Origin: a virus
DNA: 62,875 nt
Direction: 5' to 3' (one strand)
Virus record (IMG/VR): IMGVR_UViG_3300030739_000001
The position numbers and the translations under genes are program-made. The notes below the pieces were generated by a model. The model was given only the letters and a program-made list of their open reading frames with translations. It was not told the DNA's origin and made no database searches. Positions 4,725 through 61,664 of this stretch are shown piece by piece; the stretch's first letter is position 1, and every line of letters begins with the position of its first letter.

Positions 4725-4754
4725 AGTGTACGTTGCTGACATGCAACGAAGCAA
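4725..4754 (-). promoter_or_regulatory. TTCGTT-box promoter-like element (TTGCTT-N18-TACACT) just after the HNH stop; near-leaderless for the 4716 ATG
   Basis: The minus strand reads tagTTGCTTCGTTGCATGTCAGCAACGTACACT. Fourteen nt are identical to the copy at 61650-61663. Confidence 0.45.
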
Positions 4755-5348
4755 CTAAGGCATGTCGGGCCAGTGACGGTTTCCTTTGCTGCGATTCGTC
4801 AGGCGCGGCACCACCTTCAAGTTCGCCGGAACGTGCAGGCCGCAGACGAGCGGGCTATCCAGCGGAACGGTGTGGTCGACCTCGTGCGGCTGCCCGGTCA
4901 GTTCGGTGCGCAACGCGGCGGACAGGTACTCCCGTTCGATCGCCTCGAGGTCGGCCCACGGCGGCGTGGCCCTGAACATGATGGCGCGGCGCTTGGCGGC
5001 GTAGTGGGCGCCTAGATGCCGGTGCGCGGCAGCCCACGCGCGCTTTTGGGCGAGACGGGCCTCGCGGTTCCGGTAGTGCATTTCCCGGTTTCGCGCAAGG
5101 ATTTCTTCACGTTTGAGTTCGTAGCGTGCGCGCGTCGCGCGGGCTTTGTTCGCCCTCGTTTCGGGCTTCGCGTTCTTCCGCCACGCTTCGCGCTTTTCCG
5201 GGTTGGCTGCCTGGTACTCGCGCTGGTACTCGCGCACCCTCTCCGCGTTGGCTTTCTGGTAGGCGCAAGCCCGCGCCACGATCTGTTCGCGATTTGCGAG
5301 GTAGTACGCTCGACTTTTGGCTTTCTTTTCTTCCGGGGTCGATGGCAT
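4755..5348 (-). CDS. HNH homing-type endonuclease (paralog A1) inserted between tail-tip genes
   Basis: 197 aa. The N-terminus has basic R/Y/N/E repeats. The C-terminus reads HEVDHTVPLDSPLVCGLHVPANLKVVPRLTNRSKGNRHWPDMP. Confidence 0.8.
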   Translation of the reverse strand: MPSTPEEKKAKSRAYYLANREQIVARACAYQKANAERVREYQREYQAANPEKREAWRKNAKPETRANKARATRARYELKREEILARNREMHYRNREARLAQKRAWAAAHRHLGAHYAAKRRAIMFRATPPWADLEAIEREYLSAALRTELTGQPHEVDHTVPLDSPLVCGLHVPANLKVVPRLTNRSKGNRHWPDMP

Positions 5349-5378
5349 TCGGGGGTTCCTTGGAGAGAGAATTCCCGA

Positions 5379-5407
5379 TCCTATCGACTTCGTGGCAACG
5401 AAGCAAA
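5379..5407 (-). promoter_or_regulatory. TTCGTT-box promoter-like element (TTTGCT-N17-ATAGGA) upstream of HNH A1
   Basis: The minus strand reads tttgCTTCGTTGCCACGAAGtcgATAGGA. It aligns with the copies at 58901-58929 and 61636-61664. Confidence 0.5.
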
Positions 5408-5423
5408 TAAACAGTTAAGCGGC

Positions 5424-5990
5424 TTATTTCCGAAAGTAGGCTGCACTTGGCCAGACAATTTGCTGGTCGAACTGCTGGCTCGTGTACTGGAAGAACAGAT
5501 CTCCCGGATGCAGCGCCTGCTGGTCGGCGTCGGCGTAGTAGAGCGGCGCCGGCCGGTTCAGGTCGATGCCTACGTGCTCTGCGGTCACCGTGATGGTCGA
5601 ATTGTTCGGCGTGTCGTCCACGGTTAGCGTGTCGAGCTGGCCGGCCCAAATCGGCACCACGTCTGTGACGGCGTAGGTCGTCGGGTCGAGGAGGGCCAGG
5701 CTGATCGTCACCGGGGTACCCTGCACCGTGCCCGAGAGCACCAGCGCCAGGTTGGAGGTGGGCACGCCGGACAGCTCGAACTGCAGCTGCTTGATCTCGG
5801 CGGCCGTCGTCTCCACCGCGCTGATCTTGCCGAGGCCGGCGACCCCCGAGTAGGTGACGCCGCCGGCTACGAGGGCGATGTTCGAGGTGCACAGGTTCAG
5901 CGGCGTGGCGAACGCCATGCTCACGAGCACCGCCATCGGCACCATGCCGCCCGCGATGTTCGTTTGGCCGGCAGTGGAAAGCGTTTTCAT
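5424..5990 (-). CDS. Minor tail protein at the gpL / GTA g13 position (DUF2163-like)
   Basis: The true start is MKTLSTAGQTNIAGG at 5990, in a TAATG overlap with the upstream stop. The track ORF 5424..6578 carries an Arg-rich false N-terminal extension. Confidence 0.65.
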   Translation of the reverse strand: MKTLSTAGQTNIAGGMVPMAVLVSMAFATPLNLCTSNIALVAGGVTYSGVAGLGKISAVETTAAEIKQLQFELSGVPTSNLALVLSGTVQGTPVTISLALLDPTTYAVTDVVPIWAGQLDTLTVDDTPNNSTITVTAEHVGIDLNRPAPLYYADADQQALHPGDLFFQYTSQQFDQQIVWPSAAYFRK

Positions 5991-10689: not shown

Positions 10690-10718
10690 ATTGTCTGACA
10701 TTTAACGAATTAGCACCA
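10690..10718 (-). promoter_or_regulatory. TTCGTT-box copy (CTAATTCGTTAAATGTCAG) between the tail tube and chaperone genes
   Basis: Nineteen nt are identical to the copy at 20505-20523. A possible promoter reading is TGGTGC-N17-GACAAT. Confidence 0.4.
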
Positions 10719-14627: not shown

Positions 14628-14648
14628 AGCTGTGTAACTCCTGTGAGG

Positions 14649-14660
14649 TTTAACGAAGGA
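14649..14660 (-). promoter_or_regulatory. TTCGTT-box copy (cCTTCGTTAAAc) inside the capsid 5' leader
   Basis: Read on the minus strand, about 20 nt upstream of the capsid RBS. Confidence 0.35.
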
Positions 14661-14778
14661 TGCACTGCGACCCTTTGGGGTCAGCCTCAAGGGAGCCGTA
14701 GGGCTCCCTCGGGGACCGGGCCGTGCGCAGCCCAAAAACCTTTGCAGTAGGGTTTACCCCTATTGCTATTGCAGGCCG

Positions 14779-14807
14779 ACTCTAGTTCGTTTTATGTGTC
14801 AAGTCAA
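14779..14807 (-). promoter_or_regulatory. Late promoter-like element TTGACT-N17-TAGAGT upstream of the capsid gene
   Basis: The minus strand reads gaaTTGACTtgacacataaaacgaacTAGAGTcggc. The -35 overlaps the protease stop codon. Confidence 0.6.
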
Positions 14808-17917: not shown

Positions 17918-17968
17918 GTGGGTGCGGCGGCGTTTGGTTGAGGGAAAACCCCTATTGCTTGCCGTCGC

Positions 17969-17997
17969 ACTCTAGTGATATTTAACGTACAAGTCAA
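17969..17997 (-). promoter_or_regulatory. Late promoter-like element TTGACT-N17-TAGAGT
   Basis: The minus strand reads gtTTGACTtgtacgttaaatatcacTAGAGTgcg. The TerL stop codon lies inside the -35. Confidence 0.6.
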
Positions 17998-19673: not shown

Positions 19674-19996
19674 GCGCCGCCGGCCGCGCGCCGCGCCGCC
19701 TCGATCGCCGTCTTGGCCCTGTGGCACGGTTTGCACAGGCTCTGCAGGTTGTGGTCCGCGTCAGTGCCACCCTCCCACACCGGGGTCCTGTGATCGCAGT
19801 CCGTGGCCAGCACGAAGCGGCCCGCGGCCGTGCAGAGCACGCACATGCCGCAGTCGCGCGTCATGATGCGGTGCTTGATCTGGCGCCACTTGTGGCCCGT
19901 GACCGTGCGCTCGTGCCCGTGGGCGCCGCCGGCCGCGGCGAGGCGCGACGGCGGCGCCGCACCGACGCGCGGCTTGAGGCATGTGAGGCGGCTCAT
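19670..19996 (-). CDS. HNH endonuclease, terminase-associated
   Basis: 108 aa. Reads CVLC..DCDHRTPVWEGGTDADHNLQSLCKPCHRAKT. Confidence 0.8.
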   Translation of the reverse strand: MSRLTCLKPRVGAAPPSRLAAAGGAHGHERTVTGHKWRQIKHRIMTRDCGMCVLCTAAGRFVLATDCDHRTPVWEGGTDADHNLQSLCKPCHRAKTAIEAARRAAGGA

Positions 19997-20472
19997 GTCT
20001 TGCCGACCACGGAGAGCGGGGCGCGGCCGGGTGCGTACTTGTTGCCTGGCTTCACCGCATCCGCCGCGTCGAGCAGCCTCTGCTCCTTGACGCCGACTTT
20101 CTTGGCGGCCTCGCCGGGCTTGACATCCACGTAGCCGATGGCGACCTGCGCGGCGCGGTCGCGGCGCTCGGCCGACACGCGGGGGTCGCGCATCAAGGTC
20201 AAGAAGTAGTCCTTGGGCCCGATGTCGGCCGGCATCTCGGGCGTGTAGGCCGCGGGCGCCTGCTTGGGCAAGATCTGCTCGCCGGCCGGCGCCGACTTCG
20301 GCAGGATCGCGTCACCCACGGGTTGTTGGCCGCCGGGCAGCGACTGGCCCAGCGCGGCAGCGCGCGCGGCGCGCTCTGCGTTGCTCGGACGGCCGCGTTT
20401 GCGCGGCGGCTCCGTCGTCTCCACCAGTTTCTTCTTCCGCCCCGACCCTGGGCGGGCTCCGCCGTTCATCAT
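19993..20472 (-). CDS. terS: Putative terminase small subunit
   Basis: Start MMNGGARPGSGRKKKLVE at 20472. It has a basic N-terminus and sits directly upstream of the HNH and TerL genes. Confidence 0.5.
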   Translation of the reverse strand: MMNGGARPGSGRKKKLVETTEPPRKRGRPSNAERAARAAALGQSLPGGQQPVGDAILPKSAPAGEQILPKQAPAAYTPEMPADIGPKDYFLTLMRDPRVSAERRDRAAQVAIGYVDVKPGEAAKKVGVKEQRLLDAADAVKPGNKYAPGRAPLSVVGKT

Positions 20473-20500: not shown

Positions 20501-20529
20501 ATACTGACATTTAACGAATTAGATGTCAA
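20501..20529 (-). promoter_or_regulatory. TTCGTT-box promoter-like element TTGACA-N17-CAGTAT upstream of terS
   Basis: The minus strand reads gaaTTGACAtctaattcgttaaatgtCAGTATttacc. Confidence 0.5.
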
Positions 20530-20758: not shown

Positions 20759-20792
20759 ACGGCAAATTGCGGCAAATCCGGCAATTTGCCGC
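20759..20792. promoter_or_regulatory. Cluster of three overlapping GGCAA-N-TTGCC operator-like palindromes
   Basis: Reads cacGGCAAATTGCGGCAAATCCGGCAATTTGCCgcacgg. Confidence 0.5.
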
Positions 20793-20890: not shown

Positions 20891-20928
20891 GCATGCGGTG
20901 CAGACAGCACGACCTAGGGTTTGCCCTA

Positions 20929-20974
20929 GTTCAATCTAGTTCGTTGCAACGTACATTCCATTCATCGCAACGAA
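20929..20974 (+). promoter_or_regulatory. TTCGTTGC / GCAACGAA inverted repeat with a TACATT -10-like hexamer upstream of the plus-strand small-gene island
   Basis: Reads ctagTTCGTTGCAACGTACATTccattcatcGCAACGAAcc. Confidence 0.4.
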
Positions 20975-21276: not shown

Positions 21277-21291
21277 TTCGTTAAATATCAC
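21273..21291 (+). promoter_or_regulatory. TTCGTT-box copy (CTAATTCGTTAAATATCAC) abutting the ATG at 21293
   Basis: Fifteen nt are identical to the box at 43830-43844, but no -10 follows it. Confidence 0.35.
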
Positions 21292-44787: not shown

Positions 44788-44794
44788 AACCGTC

Positions 44795-46529: not shown

Positions 46530-47423
46530 ATGAGCGCGGGCGCCACGATGGAGTATCGCTACGGCAACAAGAACAACTGGCGCCGCCGCGTGTGGAACGC
46601 CGTGCGTGAGGTGACGGACAACCCGCGGGACTCGCTGGTGTTGTTCCTCGCAGGGCGCGAGGCTGCAGACGTAGCCGTCGCTGCCGCCAAGGGGTTCCGC
46701 CCGGTGAACATGATCGCGGTCGAGCGGGACCCGGAGACACTGCGTCATCTGCGTGCCAACGGGCAGCTGACCATCGACGGCGATCTCACCGGAGCGATGG
46801 CCGCGTGGCCTAACACCCGGCCCGTTTCGGTCGTCATCGCCGACTTCTGCTGCGGTTTGTCCCCTGTGCTCGCCTTCGAGCTAGTCACCGCGTGGATGAC
46901 CCAGCCGTTTTACCGCGCAACCATGGTCGTCAACTTTCTGAGGGGCCGGGACGCTGCGAGCAATGAAATCCGGCAGGGCTGCATCGAGTGGCTGTCCGAT
47001 CTTCGGCGCCGCCTGGATGAACTGGAGGACGACATGCTCGACCTCCACGACGGGGGCGCGCCGATTCCGCTGCACTACTGCCGCGCGCTCACAGAGAGTG
47101 ATCCGAAGTCCCGTGCGCTGCATTTCTTTCTCATGACCGCAGGCCTCTACTTCGGCGAGCGCGACCCGAGCCTCTTTCAGATCGAGGCGATGTTCGCAAT
47201 GCAACGCCCCTCGATTTTTAGCTATCGGTCCACCGCCGGCAACCAAGTGTTCGACACCGTGGTCATAGCCGCCCCCGGTCGGAATTTGGACTCCGCAGGC
47301 ATCAGCGGTGAACTGGCCGACGCAATCCACGCGGCGTCCATCAAAACGCGCCCGGCCCGAGGAGGCGTGAAACAGAGCATCTCCGCCATTCTCGCGCACC
47401 ACACCCGTCGCACCCAATGCTGA
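46530..47423 (+). CDS. Rossmann / SAM-MTase-like protein of unknown specificity
   Basis: Reads ..SLVLFLAGREAADVAVAAAKGF..NMIAVERDPET..VVIADFCCG.. Confidence 0.45.
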   Translation: MSAGATMEYRYGNKNNWRRRVWNAVREVTDNPRDSLVLFLAGREAADVAVAAAKGFRPVNMIAVERDPETLRHLRANGQLTIDGDLTGAMAAWPNTRPVSVVIADFCCGLSPVLAFELVTAWMTQPFYRATMVVNFLRGRDAASNEIRQGCIEWLSDLRRRLDELEDDMLDLHDGGAPIPLHYCRALTESDPKSRALHFFLMTAGLYFGERDPSLFQIEAMFAMQRPSIFSYRSTAGNQVFDTVVIAAPGRNLDSAGISGELADAIHAASIKTRPARGGVKQSISAILAHHTRRTQC

Positions 47424-50400
47424 CCGCCCCGCCCCCTCCCCTCCGCACCATCATCGCCGGCAGCCGCGACATCACTGACCTGGCGCACGTGCGCGCCGCG
47501 ATGGCGTCGTGTCCCTGGTTCCCGTCGGTCGTGGTGAGCGGCGCCGCGCGCGGCGTGGACAAGCTCGGCGAGCGGTGGGCGGCGGAGCGCGGCATCCCGG
47601 TCGAGAGCCACCCGGCCGACTGGGACAAGCACGGCAAGCACGCGGGGCACCTGCGCAACGCCGAGATGGCGCGCGCCTCCGACGGCCTCGTGGCGGTGTG
47701 GGACGGCCGCAGCCCCGGCACGCGCGACATGATCGACTCGGCACGCTCGATGGGCCTCCGCGTCCACGTCGTGCAGGTCGTGGTGCCGTACCCCGCCGCT
47801 CCACCCGCCCCGCGGGCGGTGCCGACGATCGACGCGCGGGACATCCCCGGGCTGCAGGCACCACTCCAGCCGATCTGCAAGCGTGCGCGCGAGGGCAACG
47901 GCATCGTGCCGCTGGACTGCCTGTTCGGGTGCGCCCACGGCTGCGGCAAGCCGGCGTTCGGGATCTCGCCCGCTGCCCCGCCGGCGCCGGTGCCGGTGCA
48001 CAAGCTGCCGCGCGGCACGGTGCTGCGCGTGGGGCCGTCCTACGCCACGGTGAACGCCGAGTGCGACATGGAAGCGTTCTCCGAGGCCGGCTGGACGTGG
48101 GACGGCGAGCAGCGCAAGTGGCTCAAGCCCGAGGGCGCGTCGAAGCAGAAGAAGGGCCTGGAGATCGTCGGGGTGGATCTCTACGCGCGCCACCCGAGCG
48201 CGGCGATCCTGATGATGGCCTACGACCTGAAGGACGGCCTCGGCTGGCGCGTGTGGCTCGAAGGGCAGCCGTTCCCCGCCGACCTGGCCGCGCACATCGC
48301 CGCCGGCAGGATCCTCGAAGCGCACAACTCCGGGTTCGAGCAGCGCATGTGGCTTCACGTCGGGGTCAAGAAGTACGGCTGGCCAGCGATGCCCGACCAC
48401 CTGTGGCGCTGCAGCGCGGCGAAGGCGCGGGCCTACGCCTACCCCGGCAAGCTGGACGAGGTGGGCGCCGTGATGAAGCTCGACATCCAGAAGGATGAAG
48501 CGGGCAAGGCGCTCATCGACAAGTTCACCATGCCGCGCAACCCGACGGCGCGCGATCCGCGCACGCGCGTGCTGCTCCAGTGGTCGGCCGACGTGGCCGC
48601 GGCGCGCGCTGCCTACGACAAGCTCGGGATCCCGCACGGCTACCACGTGGAGGACATCGCGCAGCCCAAGGCGCCGCGCGCCAAGAAGGACCAGACGGTC
48701 GAGATGATCGTGCCGGGCCTGTGGCGCGTCACCACGGCCGGCGCTCTCACCGCTGAGACGGTGGCCAAGGACTACGCCGACACACTGGCGTTCGTGCGCT
48801 ACTGCGTGCGCGACATCGAGTCCGAGGCGGAGGTGTCCGGTCGCTGCCCGGATCTGGAAGGGGACGAGCTGGAGTGGTGGCAGTTCGGCCAGGAGAGCAA
48901 CGCGCACGGTATGCACGTCGACCGCGTCGGGCTGGACAACTGCGCGGAGATCGTGCGGCAGTGCCTCGCGCGCTACGACGCCGAGCTCGTGCAGATCACG
49001 GGCGGCCTCAAGTCCAGCCAGGTCAAGAAGATCACCGAGTGGCTCGCCGCGCGCGGCCTCCACATGGCGTCGCTGGACGAGGAGCACGTCACCGAGGCGC
49101 TGGAGCGCACCGACCTGACGCCCGAGTGCCGCCGCGTGCTGGAGATCCGCGCCGCGGCCGGCAGCGCCTCGGTCAAGAAGGTGTTCGCGATCGAGAACAC
49201 TCTGAGCCCCGACAACCGGCTCCGCGACCTCTACATCATCAACGGGGCGCGCACGGGGCGCGATACCGGCGTCGGCGCGCAGCCCGCCAACCTGCCGAGC
49301 TACGGCCCCGCGCCGCACAAGTGCGCGTGCGGGACGTTCTTCGCCGGCCGCTTCTCCTGCCCGACGTGCAACACGCCGCTCGCCCCTGGCGCGAAGCCGG
49401 GCGAGTGGAGCCTGGCGTGCGCGGAGCAGGCGCTCGAGCTGTTCAAGAAACGCAGCTTGGCCGAGGTGGAGCGGGTGTGGGGCGTGGGCAATGCGCTGCA
49501 CGCCGTCGCCGGCTGCCTGCGCGGCCTGTTCTGCGCGGCGCCGGGGCACGACCTGATCTCGTCCGACTACAACTCCATCGAGGCTGTGGCCATGGCGATG
49601 GTGTCGGGCGAGAAGTGGCGCATCGACACGTTCAACGGCCACGGCAAGATTTACGAAGCGTCGGCCGCGGCGATGTTCAAGATCCCGTTCGAGGACTTCA
49701 TGTACCACCGGGGGTACACCCCGGAGCAGCTCAAGCAGCCCGAGTGGTGGAAGCAGGATCCGGCGATCCCCGGCAAGACGCACCACCCGCTGCGCAAGAC
49801 TGGCAAGATTGCCGAGCTGGCGTTCGGCTTCCAGGGCGGCCTCGGTTCGGCCAATGCGTTCGGCATGCCGGGCAACGACGCGGAGAAGACGCAGAACGTG
49901 CGCGACTGGCGCAACGTGAGTCCGAGCATCGAATGGCTGTGGGGTGGGCAGACGCAGGGCAAGGCCAACGCCATCCGCGGCCACGGCAGCAAGTGGGACA
50001 AGACGCCGTTCCTGTTCGGCGTGGAAGGCGCGTTCCTCAACGCCATCCGCCACGAGGGTGTCGAGTTCAAAATCAACCGGCTCGACAATACCTATACCGG
50101 GTTCTCCTATACCCGCCACGGCGACGTGATTTGGGCGCTGCTGCCGAGCGGTCGATATCTCAAGTACCACGCGGCGCGCGAGGGCGCCGGCAAGTGGGAA
50201 GGCCAAGCCGGCATGTCCTACGAGGGCAAGAACACTAATCCGAAGAACGGGCCGGTGGGCTGGATCCGCATGGATACCTGGGGCGGTCGCCTCGTTGAGA
50301 ATCTGATCCAGGCAATTTGCCGAGACATCTTAAAAGAAGCTGTCTTGCGCTTGCGAAAAGCCGGCTACACCACCGTTATGCGCACTTATGACGAAGTCGT

Positions 50401-50533
50401 CTGCGAGATACTCAAGGGGTTTGGCAGCCACGAGGAGTTCGAGCGGATCGTGGAGATTCGCCCCTGGTGGGCGCCTGATTGGCCGATCCGGGCGCCGGAC
50501 TCCTGGCGGGGGCTGCGCTACCGCAAAGCGTGA
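47417..50533 (+). CDS. Family A DNA polymerase (3'-5' exo plus pol) fused to an N-terminal DUF2493 / SLOG domain
   Basis: One continuous 1038-aa ORF. The N-terminus reads IIAGSRDITD..VVSGAARGVDKLGERWAAERG..ADWDKHGKHAGHLRNAEM. The exonuclease motif is AECDMEAFS. The PolA body follows. Confidence 0.8.
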   Translation: MLTAPPPPLRTIIAGSRDITDLAHVRAAMASCPWFPSVVVSGAARGVDKLGERWAAERGIPVESHPADWDKHGKHAGHLRNAEMARASDGLVAVWDGRSPGTRDMIDSARSMGLRVHVVQVVVPYPAAPPAPRAVPTIDARDIPGLQAPLQPICKRAREGNGIVPLDCLFGCAHGCGKPAFGISPAAPPAPVPVHKLPRGTVLRVGPSYATVNAECDMEAFSEAGWTWDGEQRKWLKPEGASKQKKGLEIVGVDLYARHPSAAILMMAYDLKDGLGWRVWLEGQPFPADLAAHIAAGRILEAHNSGFEQRMWLHVGVKKYGWPAMPDHLWRCSAAKARAYAYPGKLDEVGAVMKLDIQKDEAGKALIDKFTMPRNPTARDPRTRVLLQWSADVAAARAAYDKLGIPHGYHVEDIAQPKAPRAKKDQTVEMIVPGLWRVTTAGALTAETVAKDYADTLAFVRYCVRDIESEAEVSGRCPDLEGDELEWWQFGQESNAHGMHVDRVGLDNCAEIVRQCLARYDAELVQITGGLKSSQVKKITEWLAARGLHMASLDEEHVTEALERTDLTPECRRVLEIRAAAGSASVKKVFAIENTLSPDNRLRDLYIINGARTGRDTGVGAQPANLPSYGPAPHKCACGTFFAGRFSCPTCNTPLAPGAKPGEWSLACAEQALELFKKRSLAEVERVWGVGNALHAVAGCLRGLFCAAPGHDLISSDYNSIEAVAMAMVSGEKWRIDTFNGHGKIYEASAAAMFKIPFEDFMYHRGYTPEQLKQPEWWKQDPAIPGKTHHPLRKTGKIAELAFGFQGGLGSANAFGMPGNDAEKTQNVRDWRNVSPSIEWLWGGQTQGKANAIRGHGSKWDKTPFLFGVEGAFLNAIRHEGVEFKINRLDNTYTGFSYTRHGDVIWALLPSGRYLKYHAAREGAGKWEGQAGMSYEGKNTNPKNGPVGWIRMDTWGGRLVENLIQAICRDILKEAVLRLRKAGYTTVMRTYDEVVCEILKGFGSHEEFERIVEIRPWWAPDWPIRAPDSWRGLRYRKA

Positions 50534-50571: not shown

Positions 50572-50600
50572 GTGACGAGTTCGTTAATTGTCTTTAGAGT
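50572..50600 (+). promoter_or_regulatory. Promoter-like element GTGACG-N17-TAGAGT
   Basis: Reads gGTGACGAGTTCGTTAATTGTCTTTAGAGTtac. Confidence 0.55.
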
Positions 50601-50634: not shown

Positions 50635-51072
50635 ATGACGAACGCCGCGCAAATGTACGAACCGCCGCTCCTACGCTTTATGAGGGCGCTCGATCCTGAC
50701 GAGAAAGAGGCGTTCGCCGAGGCGGTCGGTACGTCGCTGCAGTACCTACACCAGATGGTTGGCCAGCCCGCGCCCAACCCGAACCTCAGGCTGGCGCTCG
50801 CCATCGTGGAGGAGAGCCAACGCATCTACCGCAAACGCGGTATTGACCCGCTCACCCTCTCCGACCTGCTCGTGGGTCGTATCAAGGCGCAGAACATGAA
50901 GGACCACACGACGGGTGAGTCCTTCGCCCTCCTGCCCTCTGGCGAACTGGCGAGACGCCGCCTCGACATGACGGGCCGCATCGTGCTCATCAACGCCGCC
51001 GGGGAGGTGATCGCCGAGGAGGACTCGTACCCCAGCCCCGCGATGGCCAAGAAGATTCCCCCCTTGGATTGA
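50635..51072 (+). CDS. HTH DNA-binding regulator (Cro/CII/YdaS-like)
   Basis: Reads ..FAEAVGTSLQYLHQMVGQPAPNPNLRLALAIVEESQ. Confidence 0.6.
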   Translation: MTNAAQMYEPPLLRFMRALDPDEKEAFAEAVGTSLQYLHQMVGQPAPNPNLRLALAIVEESQRIYRKRGIDPLTLSDLLVGRIKAQNMKDHTTGESFALLPSGELARRRLDMTGRIVLINAAGEVIAEEDSYPSPAMAKKIPPLD

Positions 51073-51491
51073 CGATAATGACCGCCGCTCAACTCGCATT
51101 AGAAGGCATCCACGTGGGTCGCAATTTGCTGCAGGAATACGCTGACCTCACACGTCAACTGATGGAGGTCACGCGGAAGCGCACCGAGGTGGGCAAACTG
51201 CTCGAACGCGAGCAGACCGACGCGCGCCTCGCGGCCAAGCGTGCAGAGGACAAGCGCATCGCGGAGGCCATCATCTCGGTGGCCGAGACAGGCAGTTGGG
51301 ACGCGGCCGTGCAGGCGCTCGGCATGCCTGATTGGCGGCTCGACATGCTCTTTCACAACGTGCTGCGCCACATCCGTCGCAGGTACCCCGCACACGCCGA
51401 CGTGATCCCCACGAAGGTCAGCCCGCGCACGATGGAGACGTGGAACGAGTGGGGGCCGTTCGTGCGCAAATATCTCAAGACTCTCCGTTGA
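51069..51491 (+). CDS. Hypothetical protein (140 aa)
   Basis: TTG start in a TTGA overlap; an alternative ATG is at 51078. Confidence 0.5.
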   Translation: MTIMTAAQLALEGIHVGRNLLQEYADLTRQLMEVTRKRTEVGKLLEREQTDARLAAKRAEDKRIAEAIISVAETGSWDAAVQALGMPDWRLDMLFHNVLRHIRRRYPAHADVIPTKVSPRTMETWNEWGPFVRKYLKTLR

Positions 51492-51516
51492 CGACTTCGT
51501 TATAACGAAGCAGAAT
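51488..51516 (+). promoter_or_regulatory. Promoter-like element TTGACG-N17-CAGAAT with a palindromic box; the ATG lies 7 nt downstream, so the mRNA would be leaderless
   Basis: Reads gTTGACGACTTCGTTATAACGAAGCAGAATgcggccATG. Confidence 0.5.
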
Positions 51517-51522
51517 GCGGCC

Positions 51523-51795
51523 ATGTCTTCCACAATCCTCTCCACTGCTGCCGTCGCGCAGCTCCTCGACTGCGAGCCGTCCACGGTGCAGATCAAGGCG
51601 AACGCGGGCCAACTGCCCGGCGTCAAGATCGGCAAGTCCTGGGTGTTCCCCGAGGACGCCCTCGTGGAGCGCCTCAACGAGATGGCGCGCGAGAACCTGA
51701 TCCGGCGCACCCCCGCCAAGCCGGTCGCCGTCGCGGGAGCCGTGCCGCTGCCGGCGCGCTCGCGCCGCAACGCGCTGCCGGCGTGCCTCGCATGA
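51523..51795 (+). CDS. Excisionase / AlpA-type HTH protein
   Basis: Reads LSTAAVAQLLDCEPSTVQIKANAGQLPGVKIGKSWVFPEDAL. It lies close to the integrase gene. Confidence 0.6.
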   Translation: MSSTILSTAAVAQLLDCEPSTVQIKANAGQLPGVKIGKSWVFPEDALVERLNEMARENLIRRTPAKPVAVAGAVPLPARSRRNALPACLA

Positions 51796-52521: not shown

Positions 52522-52740
52522 ATGTGGAGCGACAGCGTCATGGAGGAGCACCTCAACTTGGACGGGCACCTTCGGCACACACGCGTGTCGGCCCGGTTCG
52601 CCCCGGACGGCCGCGTGGCCGAGATGCACCGCGTGGTTGAGTGGGAGATGTCGGATGCTCACTGGGTCGAGCACGCTGCGCCGTGGAGCCACCGACTGCA
52701 TGAAGCCACCGCGTGGGCGCGGCAGGCCGGGGTGCTCTAG
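52522..52740 (+). CDS. Hypothetical protein (72 aa)
   Basis: Track ORF. It is convergent with int, and the two stops share CTAG. Confidence 0.45.
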   Translation: MWSDSVMEEHLNLDGHLRHTRVSARFAPDGRVAEMHRVVEWEMSDAHWVEHAAPWSHRLHEATAWARQAGVL

Positions 52741-53906
52741 TCCGGCAGCCGCGCCGCGAGATCCTCGCCACGCAGCGAGGCGTAGCGCAGCGCCAGGTTG
52801 GTATTTGTCCAGCCCATCACGCGGCAGATGGCGATGTCGTCGTAGACCCACATGCCGCGCGGATCGCGCAGCTCGAACCACCGGCAGGTCGCCTCGTGGC
52901 GCAGGTCGTGCTCGGTGAAGTCGGGCAGGCCGGCGAAGTCGAACAGCACCGCGAACCGCCGCGACAGCCGCGCCGTGGTCTGCTTCAGCGTCAGGTCATC
53001 GTTCTCGCCGTTCCACAGCGTGGGGAACAGCAGGCCGCCCCGCTCAATCGCCGGTCGCAGCCGATCCACCAGCACGCGCTTCATCGGCACGGTGCGCGGC
53101 TTGATGACGCCGCGGTGCCCCTTCGTGCCATCCACGTGGATGACCCGCTTGTCGAGATCGACTTGGCCAGCCCGCAGCCGGTACGCCTCGCGCAGCCGCA
53201 GGCCGGTGTCCACGATTAGGTCGAACAGCATCGTGAACTCGGGGTCGACCGCCAGCGCGCGCTCGCGCCCCTCCCGCTTCTCGCCGGCCAGCGCGCGCCG
53301 CACCCGTGCCTCGCCGTCCGCGTCGAGCCGGTGGTCGCGCTGCCGATCGCGCTTCACCTCGAGGCCCTGCGCCGCCAGCACCTCCGCCTCGGGCTTGGTG
53401 TACAGGCTGTAGCCGTCGGGTAGCAGGTCGAACGGATTGGCCGGCACGCGCTCGCCGGCCGCCGTGGCACGGTTGAGGTGCCACTGCAGCACGCGCGACA
53501 GGACGCCCACGCGTTTGCGGATGCTGGACGGTGCGAGGTGGTGCTCGGGCTTGCGGAGGCCGGCGATGTAGCCCTCGGCCCAGGGGAACGTGATCCCGGA
53601 GATGCGCACCAGCGCCACCTCGCCGCGCACCACGCGCAGCAGGTCGGCGTCGGACGACGTGATGGGGGCGAGTTGCTCGTACTCGCTGATGACCTGGGTC
53701 AGCAACGGGTCGGTGCGCCGGCCTGGCGCCTCGGGCACCAAGAGCTCGGACGGCACCACGCCGCGCGCGAGCAGCGCCATCAACTTGTCGCCGTAGCCGC
53801 GCGCGTCGGCGTCGGACTCGGCGGTGTAGAAGAACGGCTTCTCCAGCAGGGCGTGCGTGACGCGCAGCTGGAACTTCGCGCCACGGCGCTGTACGTTGAT
53901 CCCCAT
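52737..53906 (-). CDS. int: Tyrosine integrase
   Basis: 389 aa. Contains ..GLRLREAYRL.., HDLRHEATC and ..LALRYASLRGEDL. It is adjacent to the tRNA fragment. Confidence 0.85.
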   Translation of the reverse strand: MGINVQRRGAKFQLRVTHALLEKPFFYTAESDADARGYGDKLMALLARGVVPSELLVPEAPGRRTDPLLTQVISEYEQLAPITSSDADLLRVVRGEVALVRISGITFPWAEGYIAGLRKPEHHLAPSSIRKRVGVLSRVLQWHLNRATAAGERVPANPFDLLPDGYSLYTKPEAEVLAAQGLEVKRDRQRDHRLDADGEARVRRALAGEKREGRERALAVDPEFTMLFDLIVDTGLRLREAYRLRAGQVDLDKRVIHVDGTKGHRGVIKPRTVPMKRVLVDRLRPAIERGGLLFPTLWNGENDDLTLKQTTARLSRRFAVLFDFAGLPDFTEHDLRHEATCRWFELRDPRGMWVYDDIAICRVMGWTNTNLALRYASLRGEDLAARLPD

Positions 53907-53993: not shown

Positions 53994-54009
53994 CTTCGAC
54001 GTAACGAAG
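53994..54009 (-). promoter_or_regulatory. TTCGTT-box-like palindrome (CTTCGacgtaaCGAAG) upstream of int
   Basis: The minus strand reads tttgCTTCGTTACGTCGAAGtaaa. Confidence 0.3.
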
Positions 54010-54040: not shown

Positions 54041-54144
54041 CTAAGTCGTTGATTTCATTAGCGTTTTTGGAGGCGCGACCCAGAGTCGAACTGGGCTAGA
54101 CGGATTTGCAATCCGACCGCCCTGTTATAAATCAACGACTTAGG
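54041..54144 (-). mobile_element. attP region: the 3' 48 nt of tRNA-Cys(GCA) at 54068-54115, flanked by 15-bp perfect inverted repeats that match the IHF consensus
   Basis: The minus strand reads CGGATTGCAAATCCGTCTAGCCCAGTTCGACTCTGGGTCGCGCCTCCA, which is anticodon stem-loop, T-arm and acceptor 3' with CCA. No matching 5' half is present. The inverted repeats are CTAAGTCGTTGATTT at 54041-55 and AAATCAACGACTTAG at 54130-44. Confidence 0.7.
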
Positions 54145-54548: not shown

Positions 54549-55109
54549 CTACGCCTCGCAGCGGCCGATCAGCGCGGCGAAATCGAGCGGGTTCTTGGCA
54601 CCTTTGCGCATATTGCACGTCGGGCACGAGATGACTAGGTTGCTGATCGCGTGGGTGCCGCCTCGTGCGAGCGGGAAATAGTGGTCGACGTGGTACGCGA
54701 CCGCGCACGGTTTGCGGCACCAATAGCAGACCTTCTCCTGCGCCCGCTCCCACGCGTGGATCGCTGCGGTGGAGTCCCCGCCCTCCTCGTGCTGCCGGCG
54801 CCGCGCCTTGTAGGACTTGGAGATCGAGCGCCTGGCGCTGCGATTGTTACAGGCCCACTCCGCGGCTGCCGCTTTGCGCGCCTCGACGTTTGCTTGATAC
54901 CGCGCTCGGCCCTGCTTGCTGATCTTCTCGACGTTGGCCTTGACGCGGCGCCGGTCGTACTCCTTCTTCGCGACCGACGAGGAGATCGCCTTCTCGCACG
55001 CGATACAGGTGCCGAAGCTGGCGCGGCGCAGGCCAGGGTGCCCCTTCGGGCAGGGCCGTCCGGTGTAGAACGGTTCGCCGTCTGCCAGCGCCTGCGCGCG
55101 AGACTTCAC
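54549..55109 (-). CDS. HNH endonuclease (type B)
   Basis: GTG start in a GTGA overlap (VKSRAQALADGEPFY). Contains HVDHYFPLARGGTHAISNLVISCPTCNMRKG. The track ORF is over-extended to 55484. Confidence 0.7.
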   Translation of the reverse strand: MKSRAQALADGEPFYTGRPCPKGHPGLRRASFGTCIACEKAISSSVAKKEYDRRRVKANVEKISKQGRARYQANVEARKAAAAEWACNNRSARRSISKSYKARRRQHEEGGDSTAAIHAWERAQEKVCYWCRKPCAVAYHVDHYFPLARGGTHAISNLVISCPTCNMRKGAKNPLDFAALIGRCEA

Positions 55110-56266
55110 AACATGCCCACGTCGCAGCGGTGGCGCTCGATCTCGCCGAACTTGCGATGGTGGACGATCAGCTGCATGTCGCGGCCGGCGCGGTAGCCCT
55201 GGCCCTGGTGCCATGCGTCCCGCGCGGCGAGCGTGCGGACATACTCGACGATCACGCCGGGGTATTCCTTCACATCCTTGTGGTGGACGTGGCCAACGTA
55301 CCAGTAGCGGTGCGTGGTCGCACCCCACTCCTTCGGCTTGTCGGCCGCCATCACGGCGCCCATGTCCTTGCCCTTGATCGTGTCGCCGTGGGTCGAGCCG
55401 ATGTTCACCGCGCCGAAGCGGTAGTACCAGCACACCGAGGGCGACAGGTCCACCTTGACTCGCGGGTCCTCGTGGAAGTAGCACGACAACATCAGGGACA
55501 GCGCATAGGATGAGTGCCCATCGTGGTTGCCCTTGTTGATGCGCACGATCACGGTGGAGTGCTTCTCCAGCATGCGGCGAATGCAGTGGATCATGGCGCG
55601 CAGGCCGACTTGCTGCACGAGTGGCCAGCGGCCGTCCACGTCGAGTTGGTGGCCCGACTGGGTCACGTTCTTCTGGTTGTCCGCGTGGAACATGTCCCCC
55701 AGGTTGAGCAGCAGCCCGGTCGAGCCTTCCGGGGCAGACGCCACGAGGCGATCAACCGCATCGCAGGTGAGCTTCTCCGCGAGCTTCAGGTCGAAGTCCG
55801 CGCCCGCGTCCTGCCACCACGCGTACATGCCGAAATGCGGGTCACCCCACGGGTAGACGCTCAGCAGGTCTTTTGCCTGGCCGGCGGGCGCCTTGGAGAT
55901 CGGCGCCAGGCCCTTGACGCCCTCGCTCAGCGTGGCCGCAAACGTCTGCAGCATCGCGGCCTGGCGCTCGGCGTCGGGCGACTGGCGCTCCCACGTGCGC
56001 TCGACCTTGCCGGCGTCATCGCGCTGGACCGTCACCTTGCCCATCAGGTAGCCGGGCGCCGTGCCGCTGTTGAAGTGGCCGGGCGCCTTGCCGCGACGCG
56101 CGGCGATCTCCGCCAGCGACTCGAGCGACTGGATGTTGCGCGAGATGCCGCTGTGGTGGATCCCGAGCTGGTCGGCCGCGGCGCGCGCGCTGCCGTGCTC
56201 CTTGACGGAGGCGAGCAGTTCGACCTGGCGTTCAGTGGCGAAAGGGATCAGGTGGTCGAGATTCAT
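55106..56266 (-). CDS. N-terminal HTH fused to a calcineurin-like metallophosphoesterase
   Basis: Start MNLDHLIPFATERQVELL at 56266 in an ATGA overlap. The metallophosphoesterase motifs GDPHFG, GDMFH, GNHD and GHVHH are present. Confidence 0.7.
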   Translation of the reverse strand: MNLDHLIPFATERQVELLASVKEHGSARAAADQLGIHHSGISRNIQSLESLAEIAARRGKAPGHFNSGTAPGYLMGKVTVQRDDAGKVERTWERQSPDAERQAAMLQTFAATLSEGVKGLAPISKAPAGQAKDLLSVYPWGDPHFGMYAWWQDAGADFDLKLAEKLTCDAVDRLVASAPEGSTGLLLNLGDMFHADNQKNVTQSGHQLDVDGRWPLVQQVGLRAMIHCIRRMLEKHSTVIVRINKGNHDGHSSYALSLMLSCYFHEDPRVKVDLSPSVCWYYRFGAVNIGSTHGDTIKGKDMGAVMAADKPKEWGATTHRYWYVGHVHHKDVKEYPGVIVEYVRTLAARDAWHQGQGYRAGRDMQLIVHHRKFGEIERHRCDVGML

Positions 56267-58875: not shown

Positions 58876-58900
58876 AGGGGCTCCTAGGGAATGGTGCAGA

Positions 58901-58929
58901 GTCTATCTGCTTCGTTTTAACGAAGTCAA
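58901..58929 (-). promoter_or_regulatory. Promoter-like element TTGACT-N17-ATAGAC with a palindromic box, upstream of the lysis operon
   Basis: The minus strand reads cTTGACTTCGTTAAAACGAAGCAGATAGACtct. Confidence 0.55.
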
Positions 58930-58934
58930 GCCGA

Positions 58935-60542
58935 CTAGCGCTTGAAGATCGTGAAACGCCGGGCGTTGATGACCCCTGGGCTGGCCCCTGCAGAGGAGAA
59001 CGCGCCATTCACAAAGACCTGCAGCTGCGTGAGGCTGGCATTGTTGATCTTCAGCCAACCCGTCACGAGGATTCGACCCGTCATCGAGTCAGGGAGCACC
59101 CCGGTCGCCTCGGTCGTCTCTCCCGCCGTAGCCTGGCCGTACGCGCCTGAGCTGTTGCTCTGCAGCGTCAGGCTCACCGCACCGAGCCCGGAGTTGTTGG
59201 CGTTCGACCAGTCAACCTCGGCCGCGAAGCAAATTTCGTCCCCTTGGACGAGTCCGAGGGAAGTCAAGGTGCCGTTCCAGATCGGCGCCACGCTCACGGA
59301 GTCGTTCGCAGCGGCGGGCTGAACGATCAACTGAACCTTGCAGCCCTTGCCGTCATTGGGGTCGAAGATGGAGCAGGTTGCGGTCGGACTGCCGACACCT
59401 CGCAGTCCTTCCCATCCAGGGGGCAGGCCGCCGCTCGAGGCGAGGCCGCCGCTCGAGGGCGGCAGGTAGTTCAATTGCCCGACGGAGCCTGCGCCCGTCG
59501 ATGCGGTGACTCCGGTGGCGAAGATGCCCCCGTTGGTCGTGACCCACGGTCCCTTGAGGAGGAACTTGGCGTGGCCGTTGACGCTGCCGGTGTCGGTGGC
59601 GCTGGTAGGCAGCAGCACGGGGGCCGTCACCCACGCGGACATCGCCGTCTGCACCGCGGTCGCCATGATGATCGCGCCCGCCGCCGTCGGGTGCAGGCCG
59701 TCCGAGATCACGTAGTGCGGGTAGGCACACAGGTTAACCGGGTCATACATCGGCGTGAACGTGTCCGCGTACACCGTCTTCGTCGGCGTCGAGGCACATC
59801 CAGCCTTGATGAGGGCGTTCAGCGTCTGAATGCCATTGGCGCCCGTGCCGTTCACGGTGGCGTAGGCGGACCCCGTGAACGCTGTGCCGACCGGCGTTAC
59901 CGCGCAGACGACCACCGGTACGCCCGCCGTGATGCATTGCTGGATCAGCGCGTTGATGCTGCTCCAGACTGTCGCCGCGGACACGCCACCGTTGTGGATG
60001 TCGTTGGTGCCCGTCATCAGGATCACCATGCTCGGGCTGCGGGACAGCGCATAAGCCAACTGCGCCGACATCGCGCTCGCGAGCTGCCCACCGTGACCGT
60101 AGTTGCCGCCGAACTCGATGCCGCCTTGGAACAGCGACTTCAGGTTCAAGAAGATGCCGCGCCCCGTGAAGCGGTCCCACAGCGTCATCGCGCCGAACGT
60201 GCCGGCCGTCGTCGTGCCCGCCGCCAATCCCGCCTCCGCGATGCTGATGCTGGAGGCGTTGTAGGTGTTCCGGCCGGCCAGTTCGTAGGCCGAGTTGTTG
60301 AGGTTGTTGAGGTAGACCTCGGGGTTGCCGTACGCCTGGTTGGAGACCGTCGCGGTGAGGTTTCCCGCGCCATCCGACGTGATCGTCGTGCCGCTGGCGA
60401 CTGCGGTCTGCACATTCCCATACGCGGTGATCGAGTCCCCGACCAGTGCGATGGTCGGGGCGACGAGCGGGGACGGCCAGGTCGGCGTCGCGGCGCCCAT
60501 GGCCGCCAAGCACGCAGCCAGCACATACTTGTTCGCGCCCAT
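58935..60542 (-). CDS. SGNH/GDSL hydrolase with an N-terminal hydrophobic leader and a C-terminal beta-rich domain
   Basis: The likely ATG is at 60542 in a TAATG overlap ([16 protein letters not shown]). The blocks LVGDSIT, GTNDI and DGLHPT are present. Confidence 0.7.
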   Translation of the reverse strand: MGANKYVLAACLAAMGAATPTWPSPLVAPTIALVGDSITAYGNVQTAVASGTTITSDGAGNLTATVSNQAYGNPEVYLNNLNNSAYELAGRNTYNASSISIAEAGLAAGTTTAGTFGAMTLWDRFTGRGIFLNLKSLFQGGIEFGGNYGHGGQLASAMSAQLAYALSRSPSMVILMTGTNDIHNGGVSAATVWSSINALIQQCITAGVPVVVCAVTPVGTAFTGSAYATVNGTGANGIQTLNALIKAGCASTPTKTVYADTFTPMYDPVNLCAYPHYVISDGLHPTAAGAIIMATAVQTAMSAWVTAPVLLPTSATDTGSVNGHAKFLLKGPWVTTNGGIFATGVTASTGAGSVGQLNYLPPSSGGLASSGGLPPGWEGLRGVGSPTATCSIFDPNDGKGCKVQLIVQPAAANDSVSVAPIWNGTLTSLGLVQGDEICFAAEVDWSNANNSGLGAVSLTLQSNSSGAYGQATAGETTEATGVLPDSMTGRILVTGWLKINNASLTQLQVFVNGAFSSAGASPGVINARRFTIFKR

Positions 60543-61609
60543 TACTTCGTCCCCCACAGTTCGTAGGAGAGGCCCGCACCGGTCGGGTCGACCTGCACCA
60601 GGGAGCAGCGGGCAGTACCCGTGGTGGCGCGCTCGTCAACGATCGAGGCGGATCCGGCCGTCGTGAACGCGCCGCTGATCGGCATGCCGAAGCCGATCTT
60701 GAGCCCGGTGTTGATCGTGAGTACGGGCGTGCCGGTGCAGATGAGCGGCTGGCCGTCCAGGGAGTTGGAGAGCGTCGTCGGGCCGCTGATGCCGATCGGC
60801 AACCCGCTGATCGTCCACTCGGCGCCATCGCAGGAGTAGACGGCGTAGGGGGCTGCGGAGCCGACGAGCGCGCGCTGGCCGGCGTTGGTCGACGGCGGAT
60901 AGGTGCTGTTCAGGTTCGCTGCGGTGACGGGGCCGAGGGCCGGGGCGCCGGCCGGGCCGGTGGCACCCGTGGCGCCAGTCGGGCCGGTGGCACCCGTGGC
61001 GCCAGTCGCGCCTGTGGCACCCGTGGGCCCTGCGACACCCTGCGCGCCTGTGGCACCCGTGGGGCCTGCGACGCCTTGCGGGCCGGTCGCGCCCGTGGGC
61101 CCTGCGGGGCCAGTTGGGCCTGCGACGCCTTGCGGGCCGGTCGCGCCCGTGGGGCCTGCGGGGCCAGTTGGGCCTGCGGGGCCGGTGCTCGTCGTCCACG
61201 AGGCGCCGTTGCTGGCGTAGGCCGTGTACGGGGTGCCCGAACCGACCAGCGCCTGGGCGCCCGGGTAGGCCGCCGCGGGATACGCCGCCTGCAGCAGCGC
61301 GGTGTTCGCGAAGATGCCGACGGTGACCACGTCCACGTCCCAGCTCGCGCCGTCGCTCACGTAGACCGCGTAGGGCACCGCGGTGCCGATCAGCGCGTGA
61401 TGGCCTGCGCTCGCCGCGGCCGGGAAAGCCGCCTGCAGCAGCGCGGTGTTCGCGAAGGTGCCGACGACCGGCGAACCTCCGCCACCGCCGAACGTGGTGA
61501 TGCCCGCGGGGGTCTGGATGCCCGTGGCCAGCCCGGTGGCGGAATCCCCCAGGACGTAGATGCGGCCCCCGAGTTCGGACCCGAAAGCCAGCAGTTCGGT
61601 GGTGCTCAT
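60542..61609 (-). CDS. Collagen-like tail fibre
   Basis: 355 aa with about 30 Gly-X-Y triplets ([19 protein letters not shown]..) and three [18 protein letters not shown] repeats. Confidence 0.75.
61062..61169 (-). repeat. Tandem 54-bp repeat (2 copies, 1 mismatch) within the collagen-like tract
   Basis: gggcctgcgacgccttgcgggccggtcgcgcccgtggg(c/g)cctgcggggccagtt occurs twice. Confidence 0.8.
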
Positions 61610-61635
61610 GTGTCAACCTCGATTAATTTAGCGCA

Positions 61636-61664
61636 GTCTATTCTGTTCGTTGCAACGAAGCAAC
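61636..61664 (-). promoter_or_regulatory. Promoter-like element GTTGCT-N17-ATAGAC upstream of the fibre gene
   Basis: The minus strand reads aGTTGCTTCGTTGCAACGAACAGAATAGACtgc. Confidence 0.5.

Follow-up and report, generated by a model that had tools for sequence, protein, structure and literature searches.

The repressor of phage phiC31 acts on palindromic conserved inverted repeats (CIRs) of about 17 bp at many intergenic loci of a temperate phage, and in IncP-1 plasmids KorA and KorB use recurring palindromic operators of their own in or near most promoters, with few repressors controlling the whole backbone. In phage P1 a single repressor, C1, has about 22 operators genome-wide, many of them over promoters of separate operons, and these are asymmetric 17-mers with the consensus ATTGCTCTAATAAATTT (PMC8546580). 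The stoperators of cluster A mycobacteriophages (L5 gp71 type) are more than 20 asymmetric 13-mers recognised by a monomeric repressor with two DNA-binding domains; they are dispersed in short intergenic spaces, mostly outside promoters, block elongation in an orientation-dependent manner, and permit prophage-wide silencing by one repressor (PMC9283540). T1-like phages (T1, Stevie) carry oriented 22-bp repeats in 16–20 copies, mostly intergenic and of unknown role (PMC4319613). Here we describe a short box, the inverted repeat TTCGTT-NN-AACGAA, that recurs between the genes of the virus record IMGVR_UViG_3300030739_000001, of which the whole stretch of 62,875 nucleotides (nt; the window) was analysed.

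We propose that this box is the operator of a phage-encoded dimeric DNA-binding protein, placed in the 17–18-bp spacers of host sigma-70 promoters that serve about 18 units. We consider this reasonably probable, given the symmetry of the box, its position relative to the promoter hexamers and its conservation in related phages.

Each copy of the box consists of the 14-bp inverted repeat or, without change of register, of only one of its halves. Sequences matching TTCGTTNNAACGAA with no more than two mismatches number 11, compared with 0.7 expected, and five copies are perfect palindromes (27595, 36233, 51496, 58911 and 61646), with dyad symmetry that reaches 16–18 bp, as in ACTTCGTTATAACGAAGT at 36231–36248. 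The remaining copies have the left half only (beginning TTCGTTAAAT, about 9 sites) or the right half only (14786), and the palindrome register is always kept. An initial annotation of this DNA had reported at least 20 copies, almost all intergenic and some of them full palindromes, and all 21 positions that it listed do carry a box within about 20 nt; its recurring string TTCGTTAAAT, however, is found exactly only 5 times, the palindrome or one of its halves being the better description of the unit. Allowing one mismatch, TTCGTTAAAT has 12 matches against 0.40 expected, a number reached by 0 of 100 shuffles. The hexamer TTCGTT/AACGAA has 36 copies in the genome, 30 of which fall in the 13% of it that is intergenic or no more than 20 nt from a gene end. 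It is also the top over-represented intergenic 6-mer (27 compared with 3.2 expected, z 13.6, under a Markov model of intergenic DNA), and its extensions CTTCGTTA and TTCGTTAA head the intergenic 7- and 8-mer lists. Since the background of this model is the intergenic DNA itself, the AT-richness of the gaps fails to explain the enrichment, which had been anticipated in the initial annotation and is present against both the shuffles and the Markov model. Altogether 22 box sites are dispersed over the genome in short intergenic spaces, and a box is found in 18 of the 25 gaps that are 20 nt or longer. Nine half-site copies are oriented with the genes, one (14786) is reversed and one (28613) lies against its neighbours, while the palindromic sites are free of orientation. 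A reading of the palindrome as an RNA hairpin or terminator was ruled out by its 2-nt loop, by the lack of a T-run after it and by its position upstream of its own transcription start.

The second line of evidence is the promoter setting. A strict sigma-70 scan of 1–60 kb, requiring at least 9 of 12 hexamer matches and, within the −10, A as the second and T as the sixth base, returned 10 promoter-like sites, 9 of which contain the box in the spacer between a −35 (TTGACG/T) and a −10 (TAGAGT/TAGACT); about five further box promoters were accepted by eye. A clear −35/−10 pair is found at about 14 of the 22 sites, such that the earlier statement that most copies occupy a 17-nt promoter spacer holds, although not by a wide margin. 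No promoter can be recognised at the boxes at 10696, 14644, 21277 and 44776. Two registers of the box relative to the hexamers, 3–4 bp apart, can be distinguished: at sites K, L, M, O, P, E and F the order is TTGACG-AC, the 14-mer, one nucleotide and the −10, and at sites R, S, B, A and T the sequence TTGAC or TTGC abuts the 14-mer and the −10 follows five nt after it. As had been noticed before, upstream genes repeatedly end inside or against the −35 (stop codons at 43823–43825, 51489–51491, 17996–17994 and 14801–14799), and at site K an upstream TAA (36237–36239) forms the centre of the palindrome. Together with four clear terminators, the box sites split the genome into about 18 units that cover every functional module, including head, tail, lysis and integrase. 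An extended −10 (TGn) reading of an ATCAC segment was ruled out, there being no TG at −15/−14.

The individual sites, which we refer to by letter, are as follows (ORF, open reading frame; aa, amino acids; HTH, helix-turn-helix).

4737–4750, minus strand: box A, left half TTCGTTGC with a degenerate right half; promoter TTGCTT-N18-TACACT (4754–4725) accepted by eye, with the ATG (4716) of a 135-aa ORF 8 nt after its −10.
5389–5402, minus strand: box B, TTCGTTGCCACGAA on the minus strand with 1 mismatch; promoter TTGCTT-N17-TAGGAT (5406–5378), upstream of the HNH ORF 4755–5348.
10696–10709, minus strand: box C, left half TTCGTTAAATGTCA within CTAATTCGTTAAATGTCAG, beginning right after the stop of the upstream ORF; no convincing −35/−10, and it may be an operator-only site.
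14644–14657, minus strand: box D, left half TTCGTTAAACCTCA, over the ribosome-binding region of the capsid gene, whose ATG (14627) comes 16 nt later; no −35.
14779–14807, minus strand: promoter E, TTGACT-N17-TAGAGT, with the right half AACGAA (14786–14791, TTCGTT on the plus strand) in palindrome register; leader to the capsid gene of 150 nt.
17969–17997, minus strand: promoter F, TTGACT-N17-TAGAGT, box TACGTTAAATATCA (17976–17989); the terminase stop TGA lies inside the −35, and a 54-aa ORF and the portal gene are downstream.
20501–20529, minus strand: site G, TTGACA 5 nt upstream of box TTCGTTAAATGTCA (20505–20518), with a weak −10, CAGTAT; upstream of the small terminase ORF 19993–20472.
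20940–20953 and 20961–20974: boxes H (TTCGTTGCAACGTA) and H2 (TTCATCGCAACGAA) in a 1-kb non-coding region; on the minus strand box H is followed by TAGATT and the hairpin TAGGGCAAACCCTA (20915–20928).
21277–21290, plus strand: box U, TTCGTTAAATATCA, no −10; an inverted copy of site G.
23961–23989, plus strand: promoter-like site T, TTGACT-N17-GATCAT, box TTCGTTGCATCGAA (23966–23979), in a 1.1-kb non-coding region with no clear gene after it.
27595–27608: box I, perfect palindrome TTCGTTTTAACGAA between a C5-methylase ORF and the HNH ORF 26883–27455; weak promoter hexamers.
28613–28657: box J, TTCGTTAAATATGC (28613–28626) beside TAGTGTA (28628–28634), which reads as a −10 on both strands; on the minus strand TTTACT-N17-TACACT (28657–28629), found by eye and below the strict-scan threshold, with the box over its start region, is a plausible promoter of the TetR_N-like ORF 28292–28597, and a terminator (28679–28659, minus strand) lies just upstream of it.
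36226–36254, minus strand: promoter K, TTGACG-N17-TAAATT round the perfect 18-bp palindrome ACTTCGTTATAACGAAGT; precedes a long minus-strand operon starting with RdgC.
39268–39296, plus strand: promoter L, TTGACG-N17-TAAAGT, box TTCGTTTATTGTGA (39276–39289), towards the DUF2800/replication operon; its divergent partner on the minus strand (39311–39283, TTGACA-N17-CACAAT) points towards the helicase, and its start region covers the same box.
43822–43850, plus strand: promoter M, TTGACG-N17-TAGAGT, box TTCGTTAAATATCA (43830–43843); the methylase stop TGA lies inside the −35.
44776–44789, plus strand: site N, TTCGTTTAAAGGAA, right after a GC-rich hairpin and without a promoter; doubtful, as it may be chance or a terminator tail.
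50572–50600, plus strand: promoter O, GTGACG-N17-TAGAGT, left half-site TTCGTTAATTGTCT (50580–50593); precedes the candidate regulator ORF 50635–51072, and its block GGGGGGTKACGAGTTCGTTA is kept in the relative L003.
51488–51516, plus strand: promoter P, TTGACG-N17-CAGAAT round the perfect palindrome CTTCGTTATAACGAAG (51495–51510), with the ATG (51523) of the HTH_17 ORF 6 nt after the −10; L003 has the same 20 nt, TTGACGACTTCGTTATAACG.
53995–54008, minus strand: box Q, TTCGTTACGTCGAA, 2 mismatches, after a terminator (54042–54017) and before GTAAACCG; upstream of the integrase ORF 52737–53906 and beside the phage attachment site attP. The order of terminator, box and GTAAACCG recurs in the relative L028.
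58900–58929, minus strand: promoter R, TTGACT-N18-TAGACT, perfect palindrome CTTCGTTTTAACGAAG (58910–58925); precedes the lysis-region operon.
61635–61663, minus strand: promoter S, TTGCTT-N17-TAGACT, perfect palindrome TTCGTTGCAACGAA (61646–61659); precedes the tail-fibre ORFs 60542–61609 and 58935–60542.

Several of these sites modify the earlier catalogue. The copy at 17969 reads TACGTT, and the one at 44773, which is preceded by a hairpin and lacks a promoter, may be a chance match. At 14649 the box is indeed present before the capsid start codon, but without a −35, and at 14779 it is present as the right half in the same register. The catalogue lacked one further copy (20961–20974) and the divergent partner promoter at 39311–39283. 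It had also set aside two copies as misfits to a promoter model; the one at 21273 does lack a −10, whereas the one at 28605 can be explained by the minus-strand promoter TTTACT/TACACT for ORF 28292–28597 that was picked out by eye.

Some local features of these sites are worth recording separately. The variant CTAATTCGTTAAATRTCA occurs three times (20505–20522, 21273–21290 and also 10700–10713), and the first two copies form an 18-nt inverted repeat, 94% complementary, that encloses 750 bp of non-coding DNA with boxes H and H2 and GGCAAATTGC repeats. At 39268–39311, in the 88-bp gap between the helicase gene and the DUF2800 operon, near-consensus promoters on opposite strands overlap, with their −10s 2 nt apart and one common box, which looks like the main early switch region; in the relative L031 the equivalent gap has two boxes. 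A second conserved element is seen 10–35 nt downstream of the −10 at the head and portal promoters (GCAATAGGGGTAAACCCT and GCAATAGGGGTTTTCCCT, 14749–14766 and 17941–17958, both on the minus strand), and TAGGGCAAACCCTA, after the box at 20940, is similar to it. It forms a short hairpin, GGGG/CCC, where the late transcripts begin, and may be a late-specific RNA or DNA signal. Two predicted mRNAs are probably leaderless, those of the HTH_17 ORF (51511–51525) and of the 135-aa ORF (4716–4730), and neither has a ribosome-binding site.

The third line of evidence comes from relatives, which are metagenomic contigs reached via homologues of PolA and of the protein encoded by ORF 50635–51072. The box can be found in these related phages. 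Its palindrome is enriched in eight of them (hits against expected: L004, 4 and 0.15; L008, 4 and 0.4; L025, 4 and 0.3; L028, 6 and 0.45; L029, 5 and 0.25; L030, 4 and 0.43; L031, 4 and 0.63; L032, 5 and 0.13), and L003 has one full and one half copy at syntenic sites. Nearly all matches in the relatives are intergenic, as judged from called genes, and the prophage edge of L026 carries a box as well. The whole module TTGACGAC-TTCGTTNNAACG recurs in L003, L030 and L031. In a comparison of the window with L003, the DNA before the two regulator genes has no long conserved blocks other than the −35 plus the box, and the −10 and leader diverge; more generally, the box is kept across phages with only 42–58% PolA identity, while the −10 and flanks diverge. 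Pooling 48 sites gives T-(T/a/g)-C-G-T-T-N-N-A-A-C-G-(A/t/c)-A, a count that is biased by site selection. The box is missing from L006 and L007, two PolA relatives at a comparable distance, and a repeat finder run on L004 and L006–L008 returned coding repeats only. Searches of IMG/VR with exact promoter-box strings and with an HTH_17 alignment gave no matches, as did a protein-based search for the PolA locus in IMG/VR and in species genomes. In 185,579 species genomes TTGACGACTTCGTTNNAACG has 15 single matches in unrelated taxa, which is chance level (about 17 expected), and these searches point to no isolate host.

If a phage protein binds the box, the window offers few choices, as only four ORFs resemble DNA binders.

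50635–51072, plus strand: 145 aa, a putative N-terminal HTH domain of roughly 80 aa followed by a beta-rich C-terminal domain; leading candidate.
51523–51795, plus strand: 90 aa, HTH_17, excisionase-like; second candidate.
28292–28597, minus strand: 101 aa, with a TetR_N match of 21 bits against a Pfam cut-off of 24; third candidate.
55106–56266: a LysR-type HTH fused to an exonuclease-like body.

The box binder is most likely to be the 145-aa protein, with its putative Cro/YdaS-like helix-turn-helix domain, although from sequence and model we would put the chance that this assignment is correct at slightly below even. Its N-terminal 80 aa belong to a family of about 120 clusters, mostly proteins of 82–92 aa, some of them labelled 'XRE family' by JGI, and its AlphaFold model (predicted local distance difference test score, pLDDT, 84) has a five-helix N-terminal domain and a beta-rich C-terminal domain. 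Homologues with 52–62% identity are found in every box-positive phage locus except L004/L005, which have only an N-terminal remnant of the family, and the box-negative L006 and L007 have none. Members of the family always lie beside an integrase gene or directly after PolA, and a box precedes them in 8 loci. The other two small candidates do not follow the box in this manner: among the fetched loci the sole homologue of the TetR_N-like ORF is in the box-negative L007, and that of the HTH_17 ORF is in L003. The initial annotation had named both the 145-aa protein, which is favoured by its co-occurrence with the box, and the TetR-like ORF, which is probably not the binder. The latter has a score below the Pfam cut-off and is 101 aa long, where a TetR family protein with its C-terminal ligand/dimerisation domain would have about 200 aa. 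In PDB sequence searches with the three candidate regulators only weak TetR matches were obtained, for this ORF (E value 0.017 or worse).

The mechanism that we have in mind is simple. A dimer bound at about −31 to −14 would exclude RNA polymerase from the promoter, palindromic boxes being as expected for a dimeric regulator, and one protein could thereby silence the whole genome in the lysogen and then release it all at once. The gated units would comprise the replication, recombination, integrase and excisionase-like genes, the terminase, head, tail and tail-fibre genes, and lysis. Perfect palindromes (I, K, P, R and S) would be held tightly and half-sites in register (F, G, L, M and O, with the right half at E) weakly, which would give a graded response, and the promoterless boxes (C, D and U) could serve as roadblocks, as auxiliary sites or in looping. 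In its strongest form the proposal would have a protein of the 50635–51072 family (core about 82 aa) as the sole immunity repressor of an uncultivated lineage of PolA-encoding temperate siphophages with Burkholderiales-like hosts, acting on every unit through the spacer palindrome, with lytic timing set by the affinity of full compared with half-sites and without a late activator or antiterminator cascade. This extended version we regard as doubtful. The same Cro/YdaS-like protein might also act at attP, where the box is conserved.

A number of observations weigh against the operator model, or against the 145-aa protein as its agent. Sequence searches of Pfam, PHROGs and the PDB with this protein gave no matches, and its best Foldseek match, the N-terminal domain of the Cro-like YdaS (8co2, probability 0.89), is weak with an E value of 0.26. 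A genomic island, L027, has a homologue of 52% identity but no box, and the same is true of L024 with a homologue of 38% identity. The co-occurrence of box and protein is also confounded, because all box-positive loci represent one PolA-encoding phage lineage. Pfam scans of about 40 small ORFs recognised no CI-type repressor (RecA-cleavable or other), no sigma factor and no antirepressor. Furthermore, if half-sites bind weakly, the silencing of the head and replication promoters in the lysogen is unexplained. Lastly, half-site promoters have in common a second conserved segment (AAATATCAC or AAATGTCAG) that mismatches the missing half and is unexplained by the palindrome model.

This last segment could be the site of a second protein, and it is one reason to ask whether the box is instead an activator or dual-regulator site, at which a phage protein in the spacer turns the promoters on, or CI-like and Cro-like proteins compete for the boxes and set the choice between lysis and lysogeny. 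Late promoters of the P1 Lpa type and spacer binders of the MerR type are models for such activation, and the palindrome centre, at about −20 to −25, is placed much as in P1 late promoters; in addition, three HTH candidates are present and the −10 hexamers (TAGAGT, TAGACT) are non-consensus. However, most sites have a good TTGAC −35 and a 17-bp spacer and should fire unaided, such that no activator is needed, the spacers of 17–18 bp are shorter than the 19–20 bp typical of MerR-type promoters, and two registers 3–4 bp apart would be tolerated by a steric repressor but are incompatible with phase-dependent activation. We therefore think activation unlikely. Improbable, too, is the notion that the box is only part of a shared promoter consensus, a cassette that duplication or recombination has spread and that RNA polymerase reads unaided by any other binding protein; parallels would be T4 early promoters, with their extended consensus, and the mobile promoter-stem-loop cassettes known from T4-type phages. 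Some copies are in fact alike beyond the palindrome (both 17976 and 43830 have CGTTAAATATCAC-TAGAGT, and three sites have CTAATTCGTTAAATRTCA), and the HNH gene 4755–5348 lies between two similar box-promoters, yet the likeness between copies ends after about 20 nt, and polymerase recognition does not account for the dyad symmetry of five perfect 14-bp palindromes extending to 16–18 bp, for boxes that lack promoters (C, D and U) or occur in two registers, or for a box that persists at 42–58% PolA identity while −10 and flanks diverge.

Two further explanations concern the position of the box at the ends of genes and near attP. Bound protein might mainly halt polymerase reading through from the upstream unit, as the L5 repressor does: every box is located where an upstream gene ends, terminators between the units are few, four or five boxes are promoterless (10696, 14644, 21277 and 44776) and the half-site copies are mostly oriented with the genes. 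Nevertheless, for most boxes, exactly between −35 and −10, repression of initiation would already suffice, and a symmetric site is at odds with the orientation dependence of stoperators (PMC9283540). We regard an elongation block as quite improbable as the principal role, and it could be an added function and not necessarily a true alternative. More improbable again is that the box is no phage-wide switch of transcription but binds a protein of the host, such as a transcription factor or a nucleoid protein, or has a role in recombination or integration through an excisionase-type protein at attP. In both the window and L028 a box does adjoin the attachment site (att), in L026 one lies at the edge of the prophage, the excisionase-like HTH_17 ORF has its own promoter with a perfect box, and P2 Cox and 186 Apl are known to act at both att and promoters; but about 20 sites are far from att and in promoter spacers, most box-positive relatives have no HTH_17 homologue, and the module is found in the 185,579 species genomes at chance level only. 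A single regulator that would switch all units, as the initial annotation had envisaged, is the best reading of the spacer position, the palindromy and a conservation stronger than that of the −10 hexamers.

The phage that carries this system is a temperate siphophage, judged from its gene content. The first and last 127 nt of the window are identical (1–127 and 62749–62875), which makes the genome a 62,748-bp circular metagenomic assembly; the same genome was assembled in at least 7 samples, and the GC content of the window is about 67%. ORF 52737–53906 (minus strand) has a Phage_integrase domain and encodes a tyrosine integrase beside attP, whose probable core is a 47-nt copy of the 3' part of tRNA-Cys at 54068–54114 (minus strand), adjoining the integrase gene. 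Scans of the window for tRNAs and Rfam families were empty. The relative L003 (70% identity) adjoins intact tRNA-Cys (L003 7270–7343) and tRNA-Gly genes. The integrase, the tRNA-Cys attP and the position of L003 beside an intact tRNA-Cys indicate that the phage is temperate. Megablast of 32 kb against 50,697 phage records gave only two short matches (73–74%), and the terminase is at most 59% identical to terminases of known HK97-like siphophages; an initial idea of a Bcep22-like podophage was abandoned after these two comparisons. The gene map, from a codon-bias gene call and domain searches, has the following blocks.

20.5 kb down to 0 kb, minus strand, wrapping round the junction: structural block with small and large terminase, portal, protease, capsid, tape measure and a giant tail ORF across the junction.
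20.5–24.5 kb: lower-GC region of 4 kb with poor coding potential.
24.5–39.2 kb, minus strand: primase-polymerase/helicase, C5 methylase, RdgC and helicase.
39.3–52.7 kb, plus strand: DUF2800 nuclease, N6/N4 methylase, SLOG-PolA fusion and small regulators.
52.7–62.7 kb, minus strand: integrase, lysis genes and tail fibres.

Within this map the end-truncated ORFs 3–4316 and 62265–62873 (both minus strand) join in frame, and the giant tail protein that they encode has about 1,600 aa. HNH endonucleases are encoded by three free-standing ORFs (4755–5348, 26883–27455 and 54549–55109, all minus strand), the first two of which share a conserved C-terminal half, and the first, in the tail operon, sits between the similar box-promoters A and B as if inserted with a promoter copy. 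The set of replication genes is unusual: ORF 36566–37534 (minus strand) has the N-terminal domain of a dATP/dGTP diphosphohydrolase (MazZ-like), ORF 47417–50533 (plus strand) fuses a SLOG (YspA-like) domain to DNA polymerase A, and ORF 24493–26886 (minus strand) encodes an NrS-1-type primase-polymerase with a DUF5906 helicase. The 4-kb segment 20473–24492 has a GC content of 0.61–0.64, a weak coding signal and a few plus-strand ORFs (one DUF7249); it is bounded by terminators at 23436–23469 (plus strand) and 24444–24429 (minus strand) and holds the box-promoter 23961–23989 without an obvious downstream gene. A palindromic repeat, GGCAAATTGCCG, has 8 copies, counting both strands, compared with 0.4 expected, clustered in the two large non-coding regions bordering this segment (20761–20791 and 24364–24395; also 50310–50322). 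At 24.1–24.3 kb there is in addition a 23-nt inverted repeat of CTCCACT-type units (24114–24136 and 24246–24268) with a TATATATA core. These two sets of repeats may be an origin, partition or packaging site.

If our proposal is correct, this phage would be an example of 'flat' gene control in a phage of Gram-negative type, with about 18 host-type promoters under one operator, in contrast to a cascade as in lambda and to P1 and L5, whose sites are asymmetric. An uncultivated phage lineage would gain a defined promoter map, and a ready-made orthogonal set of repressible promoters, graded from full sites to half-sites, would become available. The immunity groups of related prophages would become predictable from operator and recognition-helix sequences, and the system would be a test of whether a temperate phage can express its late genes with no activator dedicated to them.

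Finally, we return to the described systems. The CIRs of phiC31 belong to a phage of actinomycete hosts, with early promoters that are not sigma-70-like and a repressor of an unrelated family, and are not systematically in spacers. KorA and KorB are plasmid regulators, ParB-type and other repressors with other operator sequences, and KorB acts at a distance. The 22-bp repeats of T1-like phages are asymmetric, all oriented with transcription, belong to lytic phages and have no tie to −35/−10 hexamers. The stoperators, with which the initial annotation had compared the box, likewise number more than 20, repeat one short motif and occupy short intergenic spaces (22 sites here), but the analogy fails on the asymmetric 13-mer and probably also on the monomeric repressor, with its HTH domain plus Stoperator domain, and on the orientation-dependent elongation block outside promoters (PMC9283540); the box is a symmetric 14-bp site mostly between −35 and −10, with four or five copies (C, D, U and N) promoterless. 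Pfam or PHROGs scans of about 50 ORFs, which involved no direct comparison, recognised no protein like L5 gp71. The earlier interpretation is partly supported: it identifies the kind of system largely correctly, but its closest analogy is wrong and its TetR-like candidate probably so. Together with the L5 stoperators, the dispersed operators of P1 C1 are the nearest known counterpart. P1 C1 has the same arrangement of one regulator with dispersed operators, but the box is a different, symmetric 14-bp sequence within the promoter spacer, no C1 homologue was recognised in the window phage, and the late operons here carry the box too, whereas the late genes of P1 require the activator Lpa and are not directly gated by C1. 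From its sequence features the box system is thus outside the stoperator and C1 families, and what sets it apart from the known regulons is the symmetric site, its strict placement in sigma-70 spacers including those of late operons, and the candidate protein family.

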